This document shows positions 18,973 to 57,094 of a stretch of DNA of 64,000 nucleotides, piece after piece. The translations under genes and the position numbers were made by a program. The notes under the pieces were generated by a model that was not told the origin of the DNA, ran no database searches, and was given only the letters and a program-made list of their open reading frames with translations. Location of the stretch: the NCBI GenBank assembly GCA_019721035.1, contig JAHEAA010000002.1, forward strand, positions 76,020-140,019, given 5' to 3'. Position 1 is the first letter of the stretch. Every line of letters starts with the position of its first letter. This DNA comes from Candidatus Sysuiplasma acidicola. GTDB taxonomy: Archaea > Thermoplasmatota > Thermoplasmata > Sysuiplasmatales > Sysuiplasmataceae.

Positions 18973-20394
18973 GTGTCGGTAAGTGACGGCACAGGGATGG
19001 GTGCAGTGAGCTCTGACTCCGGGCGTTATAACTGGTTTTATTCATTTTTCCTGACGAATGTACCAAATGGCGGTACTGCCCCGCTGATACCGTTGTTCCT
19101 TGTGGTCGCGTTTTCAGGCACAGTCTTGCAGGTCGGACTCGTCACCGCAGCGACTTCAGTTGCGTCCATTCCTGCATTTATAGTCTGGGGCAATCTTTCA
19201 GATCACCTTCACATGAGGAGGGTTTTCATCATCGAAGGGTTTGCAGGCCTCGCCGTATCCATGCTTGTTATGGCGTTCAGCGTTAACTTCCTCATGTTCT
19301 TCATAGCGAACTTTCTCCTTGGCCTGCTCTACACTGCCAGCGCTCCGGCGGCCACAGCACTGCTCATAGAACAAACGCCGCGTGAGCTTTGGTCAACAAT
19401 GCTGGGCAAGTTCAGCAGACTAGGTGGTGCAGGTTATCTGGCGGGCCTGCTTCTTGGAGCACTCTGGTTCGAGGCATTGCCATCAACCGCATTCGACATG
19501 CGCCTGTTTTTCACTACTGTCGGCATCATAGCGGTTGCCGGCACATTCCTCGCTGTTTTTCAGATAAAAGAGAAGCGCGGTGAGACTCGTAGCGGACGCA
19601 AAGGCAACCACTGGAACACGATTGCAACTGTTCCGCTCGGTCTGAACGAACGGGCGAAATATCTTCCTTCGCGGATTGGCTCTTTTGCCAGGCTCGCGAC
19701 TCCGACATCGGGGGAGAGAGCCGAGCTCGGACGGAGGCTCATGATCTATTATCTCGTCACCATACTAATATCCACAGGCTTTACGAGCTTCTACGCTGTG
19801 TATCCTAACTATCTGGTCGATTATCTGGGTCCCAGATACGGCATCAGGGAACCCTCGGTTTTCATCATCTATATCGGAAGCTCGCTTGCGTCGACGCTCA
19901 GTTACGGTGCAGTTTCAAAATTTTCTTCCGCCATCGGAGAGAAGAAGCTGCAGGCCACTGCCCTTGCAGCACGCGTCCTGCTCATACCGTCATTCTTCGC
20001 AGCGCCTTTTTTTCTTCACAGCAGTTCTGAAGTTTTTATATCCATGCTTGGGCTGAATGCAGCGATGGGCCTCTGCTGGGCCGTAATAAGTGTAACGGGA
20101 CAATCCATCGTTGCCGGTATGGCCGGACCACATACAAGAGGAGAGGCGATAGGACTGTATAACTCGTCCCTCGGAATAGGTGCCATATCCGGAGCACTGA
20201 CTGCAGGACTGATTACCGAATTGTCCGGATATTTCACCGACTTCCTCTTCTCATCGCTTTCCATTGTGTCAGGCATGCTTGTCCTGGCAGGATTGGACGT
20301 GCGATCTGCGAGAGTTGCTCCAGCAAGCAAGACGGAAGAGAACAGGCGCAAAGGACTGATGAAGCGCATCAGACTGATGATAGGAATGAATTAA
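18973..20394 (+). CDS. MFS transporter
   Basis: About 12 predicted TM helices with an inter-domain loop, 473 aa. Confidence 0.8.
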   Translation: MSVSDGTGMGAVSSDSGRYNWFYSFFLTNVPNGGTAPLIPLFLVVAFSGTVLQVGLVTAATSVASIPAFIVWGNLSDHLHMRRVFIIEGFAGLAVSMLVMAFSVNFLMFFIANFLLGLLYTASAPAATALLIEQTPRELWSTMLGKFSRLGGAGYLAGLLLGALWFEALPSTAFDMRLFFTTVGIIAVAGTFLAVFQIKEKRGETRSGRKGNHWNTIATVPLGLNERAKYLPSRIGSFARLATPTSGERAELGRRLMIYYLVTILISTGFTSFYAVYPNYLVDYLGPRYGIREPSVFIIYIGSSLASTLSYGAVSKFSSAIGEKKLQATALAARVLLIPSFFAAPFFLHSSSEVFISMLGLNAAMGLCWAVISVTGQSIVAGMAGPHTRGEAIGLYNSSLGIGAISGALTAGLITELSGYFTDFLFSSLSIVSGMLVLAGLDVRSARVAPASKTEENRRKGLMKRIRLMIGMN

Positions 20395-20412: not shown

Positions 20413-21636
20413 TCAGAGTCTTGATAATATCTTATTCACTTCGTCCTCAAGAGTCGCGGACCCCGTCCCCCCGTCGCCCGAGCCAAGCTCCGTCAATTCC
20501 GCACGGAGCTCCTCGACACTCTTCTCAAGCTCCTGTCTGATCTGAACAAATATCTCGAGATTTTTGCCGGCCTCCTGTCTAACCGATTCCTTTTCCTTCC
20601 GGATGCTGTCAGTGCCTTCAAATGTGATAGTCAATTCCCTGAGTCTCGTGATTTCATCTTCAAGCGCCTGCTTTCTTTCTCTGGCCTTAAGGACCTTGTT
20701 GTAATCAGTAAGTGCTTCGGAATTATTGTGTATGTAGTTAAGCGCACTCCTGATCAGATCGTTCCCGATTAAACTCAGGGGGTCATCATCCGCCAGTTCA
20801 GCCGTGAATTTGTCCAGTCGTGAAATTGCGACATCCACATCCCACTCAGTCAGCTCTCTGCTTCCAGACTTGACAACACTGCTGGTCATTTCACGTATTC
20901 TCGGCATCACTCTGACAACCGGATCTAGCAACGAGCCTGATGAATGAAGAAAGCTCTTCAGCTTCTCCATGGCCTCCGTCTCCTCTACGATTGCTGAGCG
21001 CAGACTCGATTTAGCCTCGTCCATTGCACGCAGGAGCTCCCGTTTCTTTTCCTCCTGTCTGGCGCCGGCGACCGTTTCAATGTCAAGAAACCCTTCGGGC
21101 TTTGGAATCTTTTGCCTGTATGCCTGCAGCTCATCTGTAAGATCAGCGATCTTCTTTCTGAGATAGAGAATATTCTCGATTTTTCCGTCAATTTCCTCAA
21201 GCCTTTCAAACATTCGCTGCTCTTTTTTGGAAAAACTCGAATAGTTGAAAATCTCCCTGTCCAGTTCGGCGACCGTTTCCTCAATCCGTTCCAATGCAAC
21301 CTGAAGTTGCTTTTTTCTGGCAGGTTCGCAATCCAATTTTAACAGAGGCGGCTTGAGTTTTTCCGATATTTTTGCCGGTTTCATTCTGAGAGCCTCCCTG
21401 AGATCCGGGAATCCGCCATGCCTCAGGAAGAGTTTCATTTGCTTTACGTCCTTGGGGGAGTAATCGCTGAGGAGCAGTTTGTAGAACTGCTGGAGTTGCA
21501 TCACAGCCCTTTTTTGTAAATCTCTTATCGTCTTGTCCGAGCTTTCACTCTTTCTGGCCTCCTCCAGCTTGGTGGTGATGCTCTTCCGGGTCTTCTCCAA
21601 CTTGTCGAAATCATAGGGGATGTCGCTCTCCTGCAT
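20413..21636 (-). CDS. Coiled-coil protein, function unknown (407 aa)
   Basis: Long ORF with heptad-like K/E/L/R-rich composition throughout and no enzymatic motif. Convergent with the MFS gene. Confidence 0.5.
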   Translation of the reverse strand: MQESDIPYDFDKLEKTRKSITTKLEEARKSESSDKTIRDLQKRAVMQLQQFYKLLLSDYSPKDVKQMKLFLRHGGFPDLREALRMKPAKISEKLKPPLLKLDCEPARKKQLQVALERIEETVAELDREIFNYSSFSKKEQRMFERLEEIDGKIENILYLRKKIADLTDELQAYRQKIPKPEGFLDIETVAGARQEEKKRELLRAMDEAKSSLRSAIVEETEAMEKLKSFLHSSGSLLDPVVRVMPRIREMTSSVVKSGSRELTEWDVDVAISRLDKFTAELADDDPLSLIGNDLIRSALNYIHNNSEALTDYNKVLKARERKQALEDEITRLRELTITFEGTDSIRKEKESVRQEAGKNLEIFVQIRQELEKSVEELRAELTELGSGDGGTGSATLEDEVNKILSRL

Positions 21637-21789: not shown

Positions 21790-21874
21790 GCAGGGATAAC
21801 CAAGCTTGGCCAAAGGTGCCAGATTCAGGGTCTGGTTGCGCAGGCATTCGGGGGTTCAAATCCTCCTCCCTGCA
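21790..21874 (+). tRNA. tRNA-Leu (anticodon CAG), type II with long variable arm
   Basis: Hand-folded cloverleaf: acceptor GCAGGGA/TCCCTGC, 3-bp D stem ACC/GGT, anticodon stem CCAGA/TCTGG with loop TTCAGGG, long variable arm, T arm GGGGG-TTCAAAT-CCTCC, discriminator A. CCA is not encoded. Confidence 0.8.
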
Positions 21875-21949
21875 CCGTTATTGGTGCTCAAAGTTCAAGT
21901 CATGAAAACGGCGAAGAGTACAGGGACCGGTGCAAAACCAGTGTAACTA

Positions 21950-22702
21950 ATGAGATATGCTGATATGTTCACTATAGAATTCAGGGAATATATTCATGAA
22001 AGAATCCTGGAATTTGCAAAGGCAGACAAACGAATAAGTCAAGCGGCTCTGGTTGGTTCTACCTCAGAAACGCCTGATCGCTGGTCAGATTTGGACATCA
22101 CGTTTGGCGTTTCCTCAAAATCCAACATTGAAGATGTACTGCGGGATTGGACATCGCATTTTGAATTTGTATTCAACGGGGTTTCACTATTCGACATTAC
22201 ATACAAAAGTTCAGTGTATATGGTGTTTATTCTTCCCGGTGGCCTTCAAGTTGATATCTCTTTCACTCCAGAATCCGACTTCGGTCCCCATGGACCCAGG
22301 TTCAGACTGTTATATGGTAATGTGAATAAAAGAATCCTTCACGAGGAGCCAGATCCAAAGCGTATGTTCGGGATGGCTGTACATCATTTACTAAGAACGC
22401 GTGTTTGTCTCGAACGCAGGAAAATTTGGCAGGCGGAATACTGGCTAAGCTCAGCCCGAAACGAACTCTTGTCCATTATCTGCATTAACCACAAATTACC
22501 TTACTCGAATGGAAAAGGATATGATAAACTGCCAAAAGAAGTGGTGGATTCTTTCACTCCAGCCTTTCCAAAATCACTAAACGGGATTGAATTGTGCATG
22601 GCCTTAAAGATTCTGATAGAAAACATCCCTAACAACAAGGAATTTTCACTGTTCTTGACTCAAAGGTTGGAAAACATATTGAAAGAGTTGATATCATCGT
22701 GA
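21950..22702 (+). CDS. Nucleotidyltransferase-domain protein, ANT(6)/Lnu-like (aminoglycoside/lincosamide nucleotidyltransferase fold)
   Basis: LVGSTSETPDRWSDLDITFGV matches the GS-x(n)-[DE]-x-[DE] minimal NTase motif of the KNTase/ANT(6)/Lnu families, followed by an all-helical C-terminal domain. The gene is clearly lower in GC than its neighbours. Confidence 0.6.
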   Translation: MRYADMFTIEFREYIHERILEFAKADKRISQAALVGSTSETPDRWSDLDITFGVSSKSNIEDVLRDWTSHFEFVFNGVSLFDITYKSSVYMVFILPGGLQVDISFTPESDFGPHGPRFRLLYGNVNKRILHEEPDPKRMFGMAVHHLLRTRVCLERRKIWQAEYWLSSARNELLSIICINHKLPYSNGKGYDKLPKEVVDSFTPAFPKSLNGIELCMALKILIENIPNNKEFSLFLTQRLENILKELISS

Positions 22703-22801
22703 GCGGTCACTCTTACACTTTTCCAACTTGAGCAGATATGCTAATAACCGAAATGAAATTTTGATTTGTTAAAAGATGCGAAGATCGGCCGCAAGTTGTA
22801 G

Positions 22802-22886
22802 TGCGGAGGGCCGGATTTGAACCGGCGAACCCCTGCGAGACAAGACCCTCAATCTTGCGCCGTTGACCATGCTTGGCTACCTCCGC
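22802..22886 (-). tRNA. tRNA-Leu (anticodon GAG), type II
   Basis: Reverse strand: acceptor GCGGAGG/CCTCCGC, D stem GCC/GGC, anticodon stem CAAGA/TCTTG with loop TTGAGGG, long variable arm, T arm GCCGG-TTCAAAT-CCGGC, discriminator A. Confidence 0.8.
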
Positions 22887-22997: not shown

Positions 22998-23963
22998 TCA
23001 GTTCAAGTGCAGATTCCTGTCTCCTTTTTTTGACCGGAACTGCAAATTTACTATCATATCGGACACCATGCCCGGCATGTCAAATTTCGGGTTAAATCCC
23101 CATTCTCTAACTGCGCATGTTGAGTCGACGGAAGCGGGCCATGAATCGGCAATTTTCTGTCTTCCGTCAGGTGAGTACTTTGTTGTAAAATCGGGAAAAT
23201 GTTTCTGGAGCTCCTTTTCGAGTTCTGCCGGAGTGAAATCGAATGCAGCCACGTTGAAATCTGTTCTATGTGTCAGACCAGAAGCAGGCGCTTCTGCTAT
23301 GTTTACAAGTGATTCTATTGCGTCAGGCATATACATCATTGGAAGCCTGGTGTCATTTTTAAGGAAACATTCATAATTGCGGCTGGAAACAGCTGCTCGT
23401 ATCATCTCTATCGCGTAGTCTGTCGTTCCACCGCCGGGTGCAGTCTTGTAGCTTATTATGCCAGGAAATCTCATGCCTCTGGCGTCAATAAGGCCCCTTC
23501 TGCTGTAATATTCACAGAGTTCCTCGCAGAAAAGCTTCGTTATGCCGTATATCGTCGAGGGCCTGGTGACGGTGTCCACTGGCACATTGTTTTTTGGTGT
23601 CGTGGGTCCGAACACTCCTATTGTGCTAGGCAGAATAAATCGCTCTACGCCGGAATGCATGGCCGCGTCGAGCACGTTTTTTGTACCGATAAGATTGACA
23701 TTGAATGCCAATTCGGGTTGCTCTTCTCCCCTTGCCGAAAGCACTCCCGCGAGATGAAACACAACTGTAGCAGCTGTGTCTGAGAATGTCCTGAAGACCG
23801 ACGGCCTGTCCGTGACGTCGAGGGAAACGAACTCACAGTGAGTGTCAGCAGGCTTTTTTATGTCGGTCGCCACAACGTTTTCACTGCCGTACCGAAGACA
23901 AAGTTCCCTGACGAGCTCGGAACCTATCTGACCGCATGAACCTGTAACAATTATTCGTTTCAT
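22998..23963 (-). CDS. tdh: L-threonine 3-dehydrogenase, SDR/UDP-galactose-4-epimerase-like type
   Basis: Start MKRIIVTGSCGQIGSELV (GxxGxxG); extended-SDR core with YxxxK (YGITKLF). It is divergently paired with kbl, the classical tdh-kbl arrangement. The supplied ORF has 33 extra N-terminal codons. Confidence 0.8.
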   Translation of the reverse strand: MKRIIVTGSCGQIGSELVRELCLRYGSENVVATDIKKPADTHCEFVSLDVTDRPSVFRTFSDTAATVVFHLAGVLSARGEEQPELAFNVNLIGTKNVLDAAMHSGVERFILPSTIGVFGPTTPKNNVPVDTVTRPSTIYGITKLFCEELCEYYSRRGLIDARGMRFPGIISYKTAPGGGTTDYAIEMIRAAVSSRNYECFLKNDTRLPMMYMPDAIESLVNIAEAPASGLTHRTDFNVAAFDFTPAELEKELQKHFPDFTTKYSPDGRQKIADSWPASVDSTCAVREWGFNPKFDMPGMVSDMIVNLQFRSKKGDRNLHLN

Positions 23964-24047
23964 CAAACTCACACGTGCAACAAGAAACAGCCTTGCGGGG
24001 AGTAGCATTGAGAACTTATTTAAGCCTACTTCGGCTACGCAACTGCT

Positions 24048-25232
24048 GTGACAAAAAACCATCCATGGATAGCTGAAGAACTGAAGGGAATCAGGGATGC
24101 CGGACGATACGTACCCATCAGAGCGCTGCAGTCACCGCAGGGAGCATGGGTCACCATCGGCAGGAGAAAATTACTGAATCTCTGCTCAAACAACTATCTT
24201 GGCTATGCCAACCATCCTGAGGTGAAACGCGCCGCGATAGATGCAATCGAAGCGTATGGTGTCGGTGCAGGTGCTGTGAGGAGCATTGCCGGGACGTCGG
24301 AACTTCATGTAATGCTTGAAGAGGAGATTGCGTCGTTTAAACACATGGAGGCAGCACTCGTGTTTCAGGGTGGCCTGCTAGCTAACGCCGGCACCATTCC
24401 TGTTCTGGTCGGCAAGGATGATGTAGTGTTCAGCGAGGAGCTGAACCATGCGAGCATCATCGACGGCGTAAGATTGAGTTCTGCGAAGCGTATTGTTTAC
24501 AGGCATGTGGATGTGGAGGATTTGGGAAGACAGCTGAACCAGCACAGATCAGATGGAAAGAGATCCCTCATCATAACAGACGGTGTGTTCAGCATGGACG
24601 GGGACATTGCGCCGCTCGACAGGATCGCTCAGCAGGGCATGGACTCTGACTCAATGATATATGTTGATGACGCTCACGGGGAAGGTGTTCTGGGAGACCA
24701 CGGTCGTGGCATAGTCGATCATTTCAGCCTTACAGATCGTGTCGATGTGGAAATGGGCACATTTTCAAAGGCAATTGGAAGCATGGGAGGCTTCGTAGCC
24801 GGTTCATCCGAATTGATAGAACTTCTGAGACAGAGATCTCGCCCATTCCTCTTCAGCAGCGCGCTGAATCCCGGGGATGCAGCCGCAGTTCTCAAATCGA
24901 TTCAGCTCATGAAATCAGATGATTCGCCGCTCAGACGCCTTTGGGCTAATTCGGGATCTCTGAAGTCCGGGTTGAGGGCTGCAGGGTATGACACAGGCAA
25001 TAGCAAGACTCCAATCACTCCGGTCATGATAGGGGATGAAAAGAAAACTGTGGAGCTTAGCAGGGTTCTGTATGAGGAGGAATCACTTTTCGCCTCCCCA
25101 ATTGTGTATCCGACAGTCGCGCCCGGGGCTGCAAGAATCAGACTGATGCCGTCTTCTGTTCACAGCGACGATGACATCAGATTTGCGATTGATGCGTTCC
25201 GCGCAGCAGGCTCAAAGCTTGGACTTGTCTGA
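24048..25232 (+). CDS. kbl: 2-amino-3-ketobutyrate CoA ligase (glycine C-acetyltransferase), alpha-oxoamine synthase family
   Basis: PLP-dependent AONS-family motifs (NNYLGYANHPEV, DDAHGEGVLGDHGRG, GTFSKAIGSMGGF) plus tdh adjacency. Confidence 0.85.
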   Translation: MTKNHPWIAEELKGIRDAGRYVPIRALQSPQGAWVTIGRRKLLNLCSNNYLGYANHPEVKRAAIDAIEAYGVGAGAVRSIAGTSELHVMLEEEIASFKHMEAALVFQGGLLANAGTIPVLVGKDDVVFSEELNHASIIDGVRLSSAKRIVYRHVDVEDLGRQLNQHRSDGKRSLIITDGVFSMDGDIAPLDRIAQQGMDSDSMIYVDDAHGEGVLGDHGRGIVDHFSLTDRVDVEMGTFSKAIGSMGGFVAGSSELIELLRQRSRPFLFSSALNPGDAAAVLKSIQLMKSDDSPLRRLWANSGSLKSGLRAAGYDTGNSKTPITPVMIGDEKKTVELSRVLYEEESLFASPIVYPTVAPGAARIRLMPSSVHSDDDIRFAIDAFRAAGSKLGLV

Positions 25233-25352: not shown

Positions 25353-25650
25353 CCAGGAGAAGAAGGGCGGCCGACGGTAGCCATCTCAGGATGGCAGCTG
25401 AGGAAAGTCCCCTCTCCAGAGAAAGGTGGCCTGTTTAAACGCAGGGGGGCGAGAGCCCCGGCAAGGGCGCAGAAACGACACAGCCAGGATGCAGAATGAT
25501 TCGCCCGGCGATGACGTTGTCCTGGATTTGATGAAACGGCGACACCCCATCGGAGCAAGTCCAAATGGCCGGCATTTCTCAAATCCGGCAGGTAGGACGC
25601 ATTAGTCGAATGCTGCCTGAAACAGAAAGGGGCTTACTACCTTCACCTGG
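25353..25650 (+). ncRNA. rnpB: Candidate RNase P RNA
   Basis: Universal P4 5' motif GAGGAAAGUCC at 25400..25410 and the P4 3' motif ACAGAAAGGGGCUUA at 25622..25636. The two strands are complementary, including the conserved U-G wobble (AAGUCCC / GGGGCUU). P2 is GGUAG (25376..25380) / CUACC (25637..25641). P3 is a hairpin CCAUC-UCAG-GAUGG immediately 5' of the P4 motif. There is candidate P1 pairing between 25353..25361 and 25642..25650. The exact ends are uncertain. Confidence 0.55.
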
Positions 25651-56993: not shown

Positions 56994-57094
56994 GCGCTGA
57001 GGGGGAGATTTGAACTCCCGAGTCGCAGAGCGACACCGGCTTTCCTGAGAGATTCTCAAGGCCGGCGCCTTGAACCGGGCTTAGCTACCTCAGC
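56994..57094 (-). tRNA. tRNA-Ser (anticodon UGA) containing a 13-nt intron at the canonical 37/38 position
   Basis: Reverse strand: acceptor GCTGAGG/CCTCAGC, discriminator G, D stem GCT/GGC, anticodon stem CCGGC/GCCGG, loop CUUGAG|intron|A with a bulge-helix-bulge-like TGAGA/TCTCA helix. Long variable arm GTCGC-TCT-GCGAC. T arm GGGAG-TTCAAAT-CTCCC. The 5' end overlaps the pheT stop codon. Confidence 0.7.

Follow-up and report, generated by a model that had tools for sequence, protein, structure and literature searches.

A low-GC nucleotidyltransferase gene in a variable slot between two tRNA-Leu genes of Candidatus Sysuiplasma acidicola

Introduction

How did a single gene of conspicuously low GC content come to lie between two tRNA-Leu genes of an archaeal chromosome, and what does its product do? 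The question is raised by a 64,000-nucleotide stretch of Candidatus Sysuiplasma acidicola (assembly GCA_019721035.1, contig JAHEAA010000002.1, positions 76,020 to 140,019; the window hereafter means this whole stretch), in which tRNA-Leu(CAG) and tRNA-Leu(GAG) enclose one gene for a nucleotidyltransferase (NTase). The original prediction had described this islet as a low-GC orphan cargo encoding a minimal NTase motif and a helical C-domain, in the manner of the aminoglycoside (ANT) and lincosamide (Lnu) nucleotidyltransferases, and had proposed that it was acquired horizontally at a tRNA integration hotspot. We refer to the space between the tRNA genes as the slot and to its gene product as the slot NTase. 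Our preferred reading, to which we assign a probability of about 60%, is that the slot is hypervariable and holds in S. acidicola one foreign, stand-alone, Mg2+-dependent small-molecule NTase with the architecture of LinB, ANT(6) and KNTase.

Results

The slot holds different cargos in related archaea

Loci of relatives were compared using the 407-aa gene on the left of the slot as the synteny anchor, which these relatives, all Thermoplasmata/Thermoplasmatota, share at ~100%, 67% or 48% protein identity. tRNA-Leu(CAG) is 94-100% identical and adjoins the 407-aa gene in L005-L008, L091-L093 and L095-L097, that is, in all the relatives' loci examined except L010, whose contig stops just short of it. 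On the other side, tRNA-Leu(GAG) adjoins the L-threonine dehydrogenase-like (TDH) gene wherever the contig extends so far (L005, L006, L093 and L010). In a BLASTN comparison of the window with L005 and L006, homology stops at 21874 and resumes at 22800-22802, positions that coincide with the inner ends of the two tRNA genes.

The content of the slot differs between genomes. The window carries the NTase gene in 924 bp; L005 and L093, whose slots show 94% DNA identity, carry a gene for a 538-aa protein without Pfam match, split in L093; L091 carries, in a partial view of the slot, a gene for an S-adenosylmethionine-dependent methyltransferase; L006 and L092 carry genes for a GDE_C glycosidase, a transglutaminase-like protein and an AlkZ-like protein in 5.1 kb, with the same gene layout in L096; and L095 carries an IS481-type transposase helix-turn-helix (HTH) fragment, a receiver-domain fragment, a 533-aa membrane protein and UbiA. 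Slot-versus-slot BLASTN found no DNA similarity among these cargos, so that five mutually unrelated cargos are known including that of the window. All the relatives' loci lack an NTase homolog, and in none of the ten are the tRNA genes adjacent with an empty slot; in answer to the synteny question posed by the original prediction, each sampled relative has a different cargo instead. The GC content of the slot is below that of its flanks in every slot measured. Because the relatives retain both tRNA genes but hold four other, unrelated cargos, the slot is regarded as a hypervariable hotspot and the NTase gene as foreign, and the evidence favours a gain of the gene after the split from the ~67%-identity lineage.

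Within S. acidicola, 17 NTase variants of at least 90% identity were found on many contigs, and the gene appears in several metagenomes. In at least four NCBI metagenome-assembled genomes (MAGs) the NTase and the 407-aa protein bear consecutive protein accessions, which indicates the same adjacency. We consider the NTase gene to be fixed in the S. acidicola population and stable within the species.

Several further observations concern the relatives' loci. The gene for the 538-aa cargo is intact in L005 (7549-9165, minus strand) and corresponds to open reading frames (ORFs) of 299 and 153 aa in L093 (3099-4496, minus strand), which suggests pseudogenisation of a slot cargo. In L095 (GCA_021830845.1, JAKBNW010000027.1, positions 2096-2725), from a relative of ~66% identity, a 92-aa IS481-type HTH fragment and a receiver-domain-like fragment lie next to tRNA-Leu(CAG) and resemble remnants of mobile or regulatory genes that have decayed in this hotspot. 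The locus also has no MFS gene between its 407-aa and THUMP genes. In L010 (contig ERZ27237492 k141_2408, 99% identical DNA), positions 2805-2823 join window position 24768 to 21263 in reverse complement, so that the KBL aminotransferase gene and the 407-aa gene, each broken in its middle, are joined in inverted orientation, with an exact microhomology of ~5 nt and a 516-aa fusion ORF (P0123). As it occurs in one contig only, this join reflects either a strain-level inversion of the islet segment or a chimeric assembly.

Composition, codon usage and origin of the gene

The window contains 52 non-overlapping ORFs of 150 aa or more, among which the slot NTase gene has the lowest GC content (0.412; mean 0.517, standard deviation (SD) 0.028; z = -3.7) and the lowest GC at third codon positions (GC3, 0.426 versus a window mean of 0.580; z = -3.3), and its GC1 and GC2 are also depressed. 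Its synonymous-codon usage also fits the remaining window less well than that of any other of the 52 ORFs (z = -4.2; second lowest -2.0). In 79 other genomes the GC content of the family gene minus that of its flanks averages +0.017 (SD 0.038), whereas the difference is -0.10 in the window. Because the GC content of the slot NTase gene lies below that of every sampled homolog (0.44-0.77), the donor is likely to be unsampled and of low GC content. Two NTase homologs are likewise strong low-GC outliers against their flanks, L077 (-0.136) in an Anaerolineae MAG and L064 (-0.092) in a Chloroflexia MAG, and suggest that the family has recently been transferred within bacteria as well.

Outside the species, the closest homolog reaches only 50% identity, and homologs at this level come from unrelated lineages. 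In a neighbour-joining tree the slot NTase groups with P0004, P0003, P0008 and two Nitrososphaerales copies, whose genomes have 45-49% GC and in which the NTase gene is compositionally native. The donor was possibly archaeal. A 246-aa gene beside P0004 was considered as a paralog or partner and rejected as unrelated. Horizontal acquisition of the slot NTase gene, as the original prediction had proposed, is supported by its composition, its codon usage, its absence from the relatives' slots and the patchy, mostly bacterial distribution of its family; no ortholog of native composition was found at the same position in relatives, and there was no best match to housekeeping NTases.

Fold of the slot NTase

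The slot NTase has a pol-beta-type N-domain with a G-S loop and three invariant carboxylates, D47, D49 and D102: the hG[GS] loop, the DxD pair and a third acidic residue on a downstream beta-strand, by which the pol-beta superfamily is recognised, are all present, and residues 36-54 (GSTSETPDRWSDLDITFGV) are the motif quoted in the original prediction. An AlphaFold2 (AF2) monomer model (pLDDT 88.6) gave six significant Foldseek matches, namely ANT(6)-Ib (top, E = 1.5e-9), LinB (two chains), ANT(6)-Ia and ANT(4')-IIb (two chains), with both domains aligned. An N-terminal NTase domain and a C-terminal helical, HEPN-like domain thus stand in one polypeptide and match over both parts, as in the class of LinB, ANT(6) and KNTase, and in the predicted structure the relationship to this class is clear at the level of the fold.

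At the sequence level the similarity is confined to a short N-terminal part. A single Pfam family, PF04439, exceeds its cut-off (24.3 bits, cut-off 22); residues 14-60 align with positions 6-55 of its 279-position profile, which detects only 7 of the 45 members of the slot NTase family at E < 0.01, so that the match is partial and mostly absent in the family. A single-sequence search of the PDB returned one match (ANT(6)-Ib, 8vxb, E = 0.0025), and a family-profile search returned LinB (3jyy, E = 0.004, 36 residues, 16% identity) and ANT(6)-Ib (E = 0.006, 95 residues). The profile alignment to ANT(6)-Ib places D47 and D49 on the DxD pair and D102 on the Asp of the 'KIDL' strand; the C-terminal segment of the match to LinB was non-significant. 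An NCBIfam scan gave no match even at E <= 10, and a PADLOC scan gave none. The Rx4-6H motif of HEPN RNases is conserved at no alignment column (at most 14 of 45 members). Antibiotic NTases carry two Mg2+-binding Asp and a third acidic residue (D40, D42 and E89 in LinB), transfer the nucleoside monophosphate (NMP) directly, and owe their specificity to divergent C-domains (PMC4313920). The C-domain of the slot NTase family, which has no counterpart by sequence, is exactly the part that confers specificity in these enzymes.

A large and conserved family of uncharacterised NTases

A word-indexed search returned 218 proteins of ~245-260 aa with 40-50% identity to the slot NTase, none of them with a precomputed Pfam domain, and an exhaustive profile search returned 1,887 clusters at 50% identity (E <= 1e-3; 412 at E <= 1e-30). 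Relatives are encoded at 403 loci in species-representative genomes. The family occurs mostly in MAGs, largely from soil, of Chloroflexota (Anaerolineales, Ktedonobacterales and Chloroflexia) and Actinomycetota (Thermoleophilia and Gaiellaceae), and also in Acidobacteriota, Dormiibacterota, Eisenbacteria, Verrucomicrobiota and Planctomycetota; the few archaeal members belong to Bathyarchaeia, Nitrososphaerales and one other Thermoplasmata. This ~250-aa family has no Pfam or NCBIfam model, and our literature searches found no paper that characterises it.

The family alignment has a mean column identity of 62% and 38 invariant columns, among them G36, D47, D49, D102, H145, H146, R149, R156, Q161, E163, W165 and R170. 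The slot NTase retains every invariant residue, and where it differs at near-invariant positions most substitutions are conservative, with a bias towards AT (L to I, R to K, A to S/T and D to N). These substitutions suggest that the protein is functional and has long resided in a background of low GC content. Across 66 family loci no neighbour gene is conserved, the commonest being found in 6 loci of closely related Anaerolineales. It follows that the NTase acts alone.

Layout of the locus and flanking genes

The coordinates are given in Table 1. The tRNA finder ARAGORN, Rfam and the ORF list agree on the layout of two tRNA genes around one gene that had been read from the letters. ARAGORN reports exactly two tRNA genes in the window; tRNA-Leu(GAG) had been filtered out of the whole-window Rfam scan and was recovered in a local scan (gathering score 29). 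The two genes are convergent, and the 3' ends of both point into the slot. The start of the NTase gene is probably the second ATG, at 21965, which gives a product of 245 aa, because the family alignment begins at the equivalent of Met6 and a 245-aa product is called in several other assemblies.

The window DNA is archaeal, and NCBI lists the identical NTase protein under Candidatus Sysuiplasma acidicola (Thermoplasmata; Sysuiplasmatales). Between the genes for KBL and threonine dehydratase there is a full-length archaeal RNase P RNA (192 bits), and genes for L15e, a family-B DNA polymerase, Rpb4 and L21e are close by in syntenic contigs. The genes on both sides of the slot are ordinary chromosomal ones, and the right flank comprises the TDH-like gene, a KBL-type aminotransferase gene, the RNase P RNA and the threonine dehydratase gene. 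As listed, the TDH-like ORF (354 aa) overlaps the start of KBL; its real start is probably an internal Met (MKRIIVTGSCGQIG...), because the orthologs in relatives have 318-336 aa. Several ORFs listed over the RNase P RNA are spurious. A 100-nt tRNA elsewhere in the window (Rfam 44.4 bits), which ARAGORN does not report, is probably an intron-containing archaeal tRNA.

Table 1. Features of the tRNA-Leu locus and of the slot NTase (window positions, or residues where marked aa)
Feature	Position	Strand	Remarks
tRNA-Leu(CAG), left slot boundary	21790-21876	+	ARAGORN; Rfam 46.1 bits (whole-window scan)
Variable slot (islet), 924 bp	21877-22800		GC 0.412 versus 0.515 in the remaining window
NTase gene	21950-22702	+	250 aa from the first ATG; one substantial ORF in the slot
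NTase N-terminal pol-beta domain	~aa 1-125		G36-S37, D47, D49, D102
NTase C-terminal HEPN-like helical domain	~aa 135-250		Invariant H145, H146, R149, R156, Q161, E163, W165, R170
tRNA-Leu(GAG), right slot boundary	22801-22886	-	ARAGORN; Rfam 51.8 bits (local scan)
MFS transporter gene	18973-20394		Ordinary chromosomal flank gene
407-aa gene, left flank, outside the islet	20413-21636	-	Lineage-specific coiled-coil protein; homologs at 100/67/48% identity in Thermoplasmata relatives
TDH gene, right flank, outside the islet	22998-24062	-	NAD-dependent epimerase family, L-threonine dehydrogenase-like; Pfam, synteny
Archaeal RNase P RNA	25355-25648	+	Rfam
100-nt tRNA	56995-57094	-	Rfam

Discussion

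A proposed function

A small-molecule NTase that arrived from elsewhere would account for these results in the following way. The gene probably reached the slot through horizontal transfer, its donor being unsampled and lower in GC content, and the closest relatives of its product are perhaps archaeal (Nitrososphaerales-like), on weak tree support. By analogy with characterised relatives, D47, D49 and D102 would bind two Mg2+ and the nucleoside triphosphate (NTP), and the HEPN-like C-domain with its invariant HHxxR and QAEYW motifs would form the acceptor-binding side. NMP, probably AMP, would pass from NTP to a hydroxyl group on a specific small molecule, with release of pyrophosphate. LinB and KNTase are reportedly dimers whose active site is formed where the N-domain of one subunit meets the C-domain of its partner, and the slot NTase would probably be dimeric as well. 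Because the family is strongly conserved, has no partner gene and is distributed among soil microbes, a defined natural product or xenobiotic would fit better as acceptor than streptomycin or lincosamides specifically.

The original prediction of an ANT/Lnu-like enzyme holds in so far as the nearest structures are LinB/Lnu(B), ANT(6) and ANT(4'), and a minimal NTase motif with a helical C-domain is what the sequence and the predicted structure both indicate; membership of these families cannot be demonstrated, the similarity being marginal and limited to ~50 N-terminal residues. In outline the protein does look like a small-molecule NTase, but an antibiotic as its substrate is inferred only, because the sequence similarity is marginal and NCBIfam is empty. 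There is no integrase and no separate HEPN gene, as had been stated, but a HEPN-like domain is present, fused in cis in the manner of KNTase.

Alternative readings

It could be argued that the slot NTase is a genuine streptomycin 6-adenylyltransferase, ANT(6), giving aminoglycoside resistance: its name at NCBI is 'aminoglycoside 6-adenylyltransferase', PF04439 is its sole Pfam family, and ANT(6)-Ib is both the top structural match and the sole single-sequence match in the PDB. However, the Pfam match takes in a small part of the profile and few family members, NCBIfam, which comprises NCBI's curated naming models, is silent, the C-domain, which sets specificity (PMC4313920), has no sequence similarity to that of ANT(6), and the family is nearly absent from plasmids, which leaves this identity very unlikely. 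A lincosamide nucleotidyltransferase of the Lnu(B)/LinB type, two chains of which are among the structural matches, is very improbable too, since the sequence match is restricted to 36 residues of the NTase core at 16% identity, NCBIfam gives no match, and the invariant HHxxR and QAEYW have no detectable match in LinB. Much the same small chance is given to a fused minimal nucleotidyltransferase (MNT)-HEPN toxin or defence protein that regulates itself, its NTase AMPylating the HEPN domain or RNA in the way of two-gene MNT-HEPN toxin-antitoxin systems. The two folds would suit such a protein, but the Rx4-6H motif is conserved at no column, PADLOC is silent, neither a conserved partner nor a defence-island context is seen in 66 loci, and the matches that are best over the full length are to small-molecule NTases, in which the C-domain is HEPN-like too.

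With regard to the origin of the gene, the NTase gene might be native and have been lost in the relatives, its low GC content being due to chance, low expression or a mutation bias near tRNA genes. The adjacent TDH gene is indeed somewhat low in GC3 (z = -1.9), and that all the relatives' slot variants fall below the GC content of their flanks could mean a regional bias. However, deviations of 3.7 SD in GC and 4.2 SD in codon usage from the window mean, with GC1 and GC2 low as well, a slot that holds five unrelated cargos, a nearest homolog of 50% identity in unrelated lineages and the lack of a homolog in any of the sampled relatives make a native gene extremely unlikely. A foreign small-molecule NTase in a hypervariable slot is therefore the reading that we prefer.

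A number of results weigh against this preference. Antibiotic NTases that have been characterised resemble the slot NTase in sequence only marginally (E about 0.003-0.006) and in the N-terminal core alone, and both the acceptor and the nucleotide are inferred for the whole family. Aminoglycosides and lincosamides hit bacterial ribosomes, and classical resistance to them is not obviously adaptive in an acidophilic archaeon. P0004 is the sister of the slot NTase in 21 of 40 bootstrap replicates, which makes the assignment of a donor weak. No convincing TATA box or B recognition element (BRE) was seen by eye in the 90 bp upstream of the gene. With respect to mobility, when the slot of the window and those of three relatives were examined for att-like direct repeats and partial tRNA copies, no match exceeded 11 nt, a length consistent with chance; no integrase was found in the window flanks or in any relative's slot; the phage genomes and IMG/VR viral contigs gave no match to the NTase family; and the plasmid search gave only two distant Curtobacterium replicons at 31% identity.

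How the cargos arrive

The idea of a tRNA integration hotspot stands as far as a variable slot between tRNA genes is concerned, and does not stand as site-specific integration, for which an integrase and att duplication would be expected. The conserved flanks contain no integrase, transposase or separate HEPN gene. No tRNA gene was found within ~5 kb of the other archaeal copies (Bathyarchaeia, Nitrososphaerales and another Thermoplasmata), and the NTase family is therefore not intrinsically associated with tRNA genes. One reading that remains is that the slot cargos are decayed integrative elements; the other is a putative exchange of cassettes, in which the conserved tRNA genes and flanks would anchor homologous recombination. 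The IS481-type transposase fragment in L095 indicates that mobile DNA does visit the slot. A bolder proposal has two separate parts: the family would be an unrecognised class of small-molecule-inactivating NTases (substrate not streptomycin, lincosamides or kanamycin), and the convergent tRNA-Leu pair may act as an integrase-free cassette-exchange site; we regard it as tentative and rather unlikely. If it were true, the family would amount to an uncharted environmental resistome or xenobiotic-defence repertoire, now extending to acidophilic archaea, and conserved tRNA genes would serve as homology anchors for the swapping of accessory genes among Sysuiplasmatales.

Implications

The locus offers a clean and well-bounded case of gene acquisition between lineages in an uncultivated acidophilic (acid-mine) archaeon, at a site that has exchanged its cargo repeatedly. 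It is a real but fairly ordinary acquisition, and it does not overturn current understanding. The public label 'aminoglycoside 6-adenylyltransferase' is not justified, as it rests on ~50 residues of generic NTase core, and for this reason resistome surveys of soil or mine-drainage metagenomes would not be justified in counting its relatives as streptomycin-resistance genes. A family that is large, strongly conserved and uncharacterised, and for which no Pfam or NCBIfam model exists, is a reasonable target for substrate discovery.

Comparison with known systems

The slot resembles tRNA-associated islands and integrative elements in that foreign cargo of atypical composition abuts tRNA 3' ends and its content varies among relatives. 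Unlike them, it has neither an integrase nor a duplicated tRNA 3' segment (attL/attR) in the four complete slots examined, and it sits between two different intact tRNA genes rather than between a tRNA gene and a partial copy.

Of the characterised enzymes, LinB/Lnu(B) (PDB 3jyy) differs from the slot NTase in its third acidic residue, Glu89 (PMC4313920) in place of D102, and in the C-domain, where the HHxxR and QAEYW motifs are specific to the slot NTase family. ANT(6) (PF04439; PDB 8vxb and 2pbe) shows 12-19% identity and is ~35-55 residues longer than members of the slot NTase family; its C-domain is not alignable with theirs by sequence, its profile is matched at 50 of 279 positions, and 38 of 45 members do not match it. 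The kanamycin nucleotidyltransferase ANT(4') (PDB 6nlt and 4ebk) shows 12% identity and no match at the sequence level. Two-gene MNT-HEPN modules are built from the same two folds, a minimal NTase and a HEPN-like four-helix domain. Unlike these modules, which keep the partner in a separate gene, the slot NTase lacks the Rx4-6H motif and fuses both folds in one polypeptide, and in this it agrees with KNTase, where a HEPN-like domain is likewise fused to the NTase.

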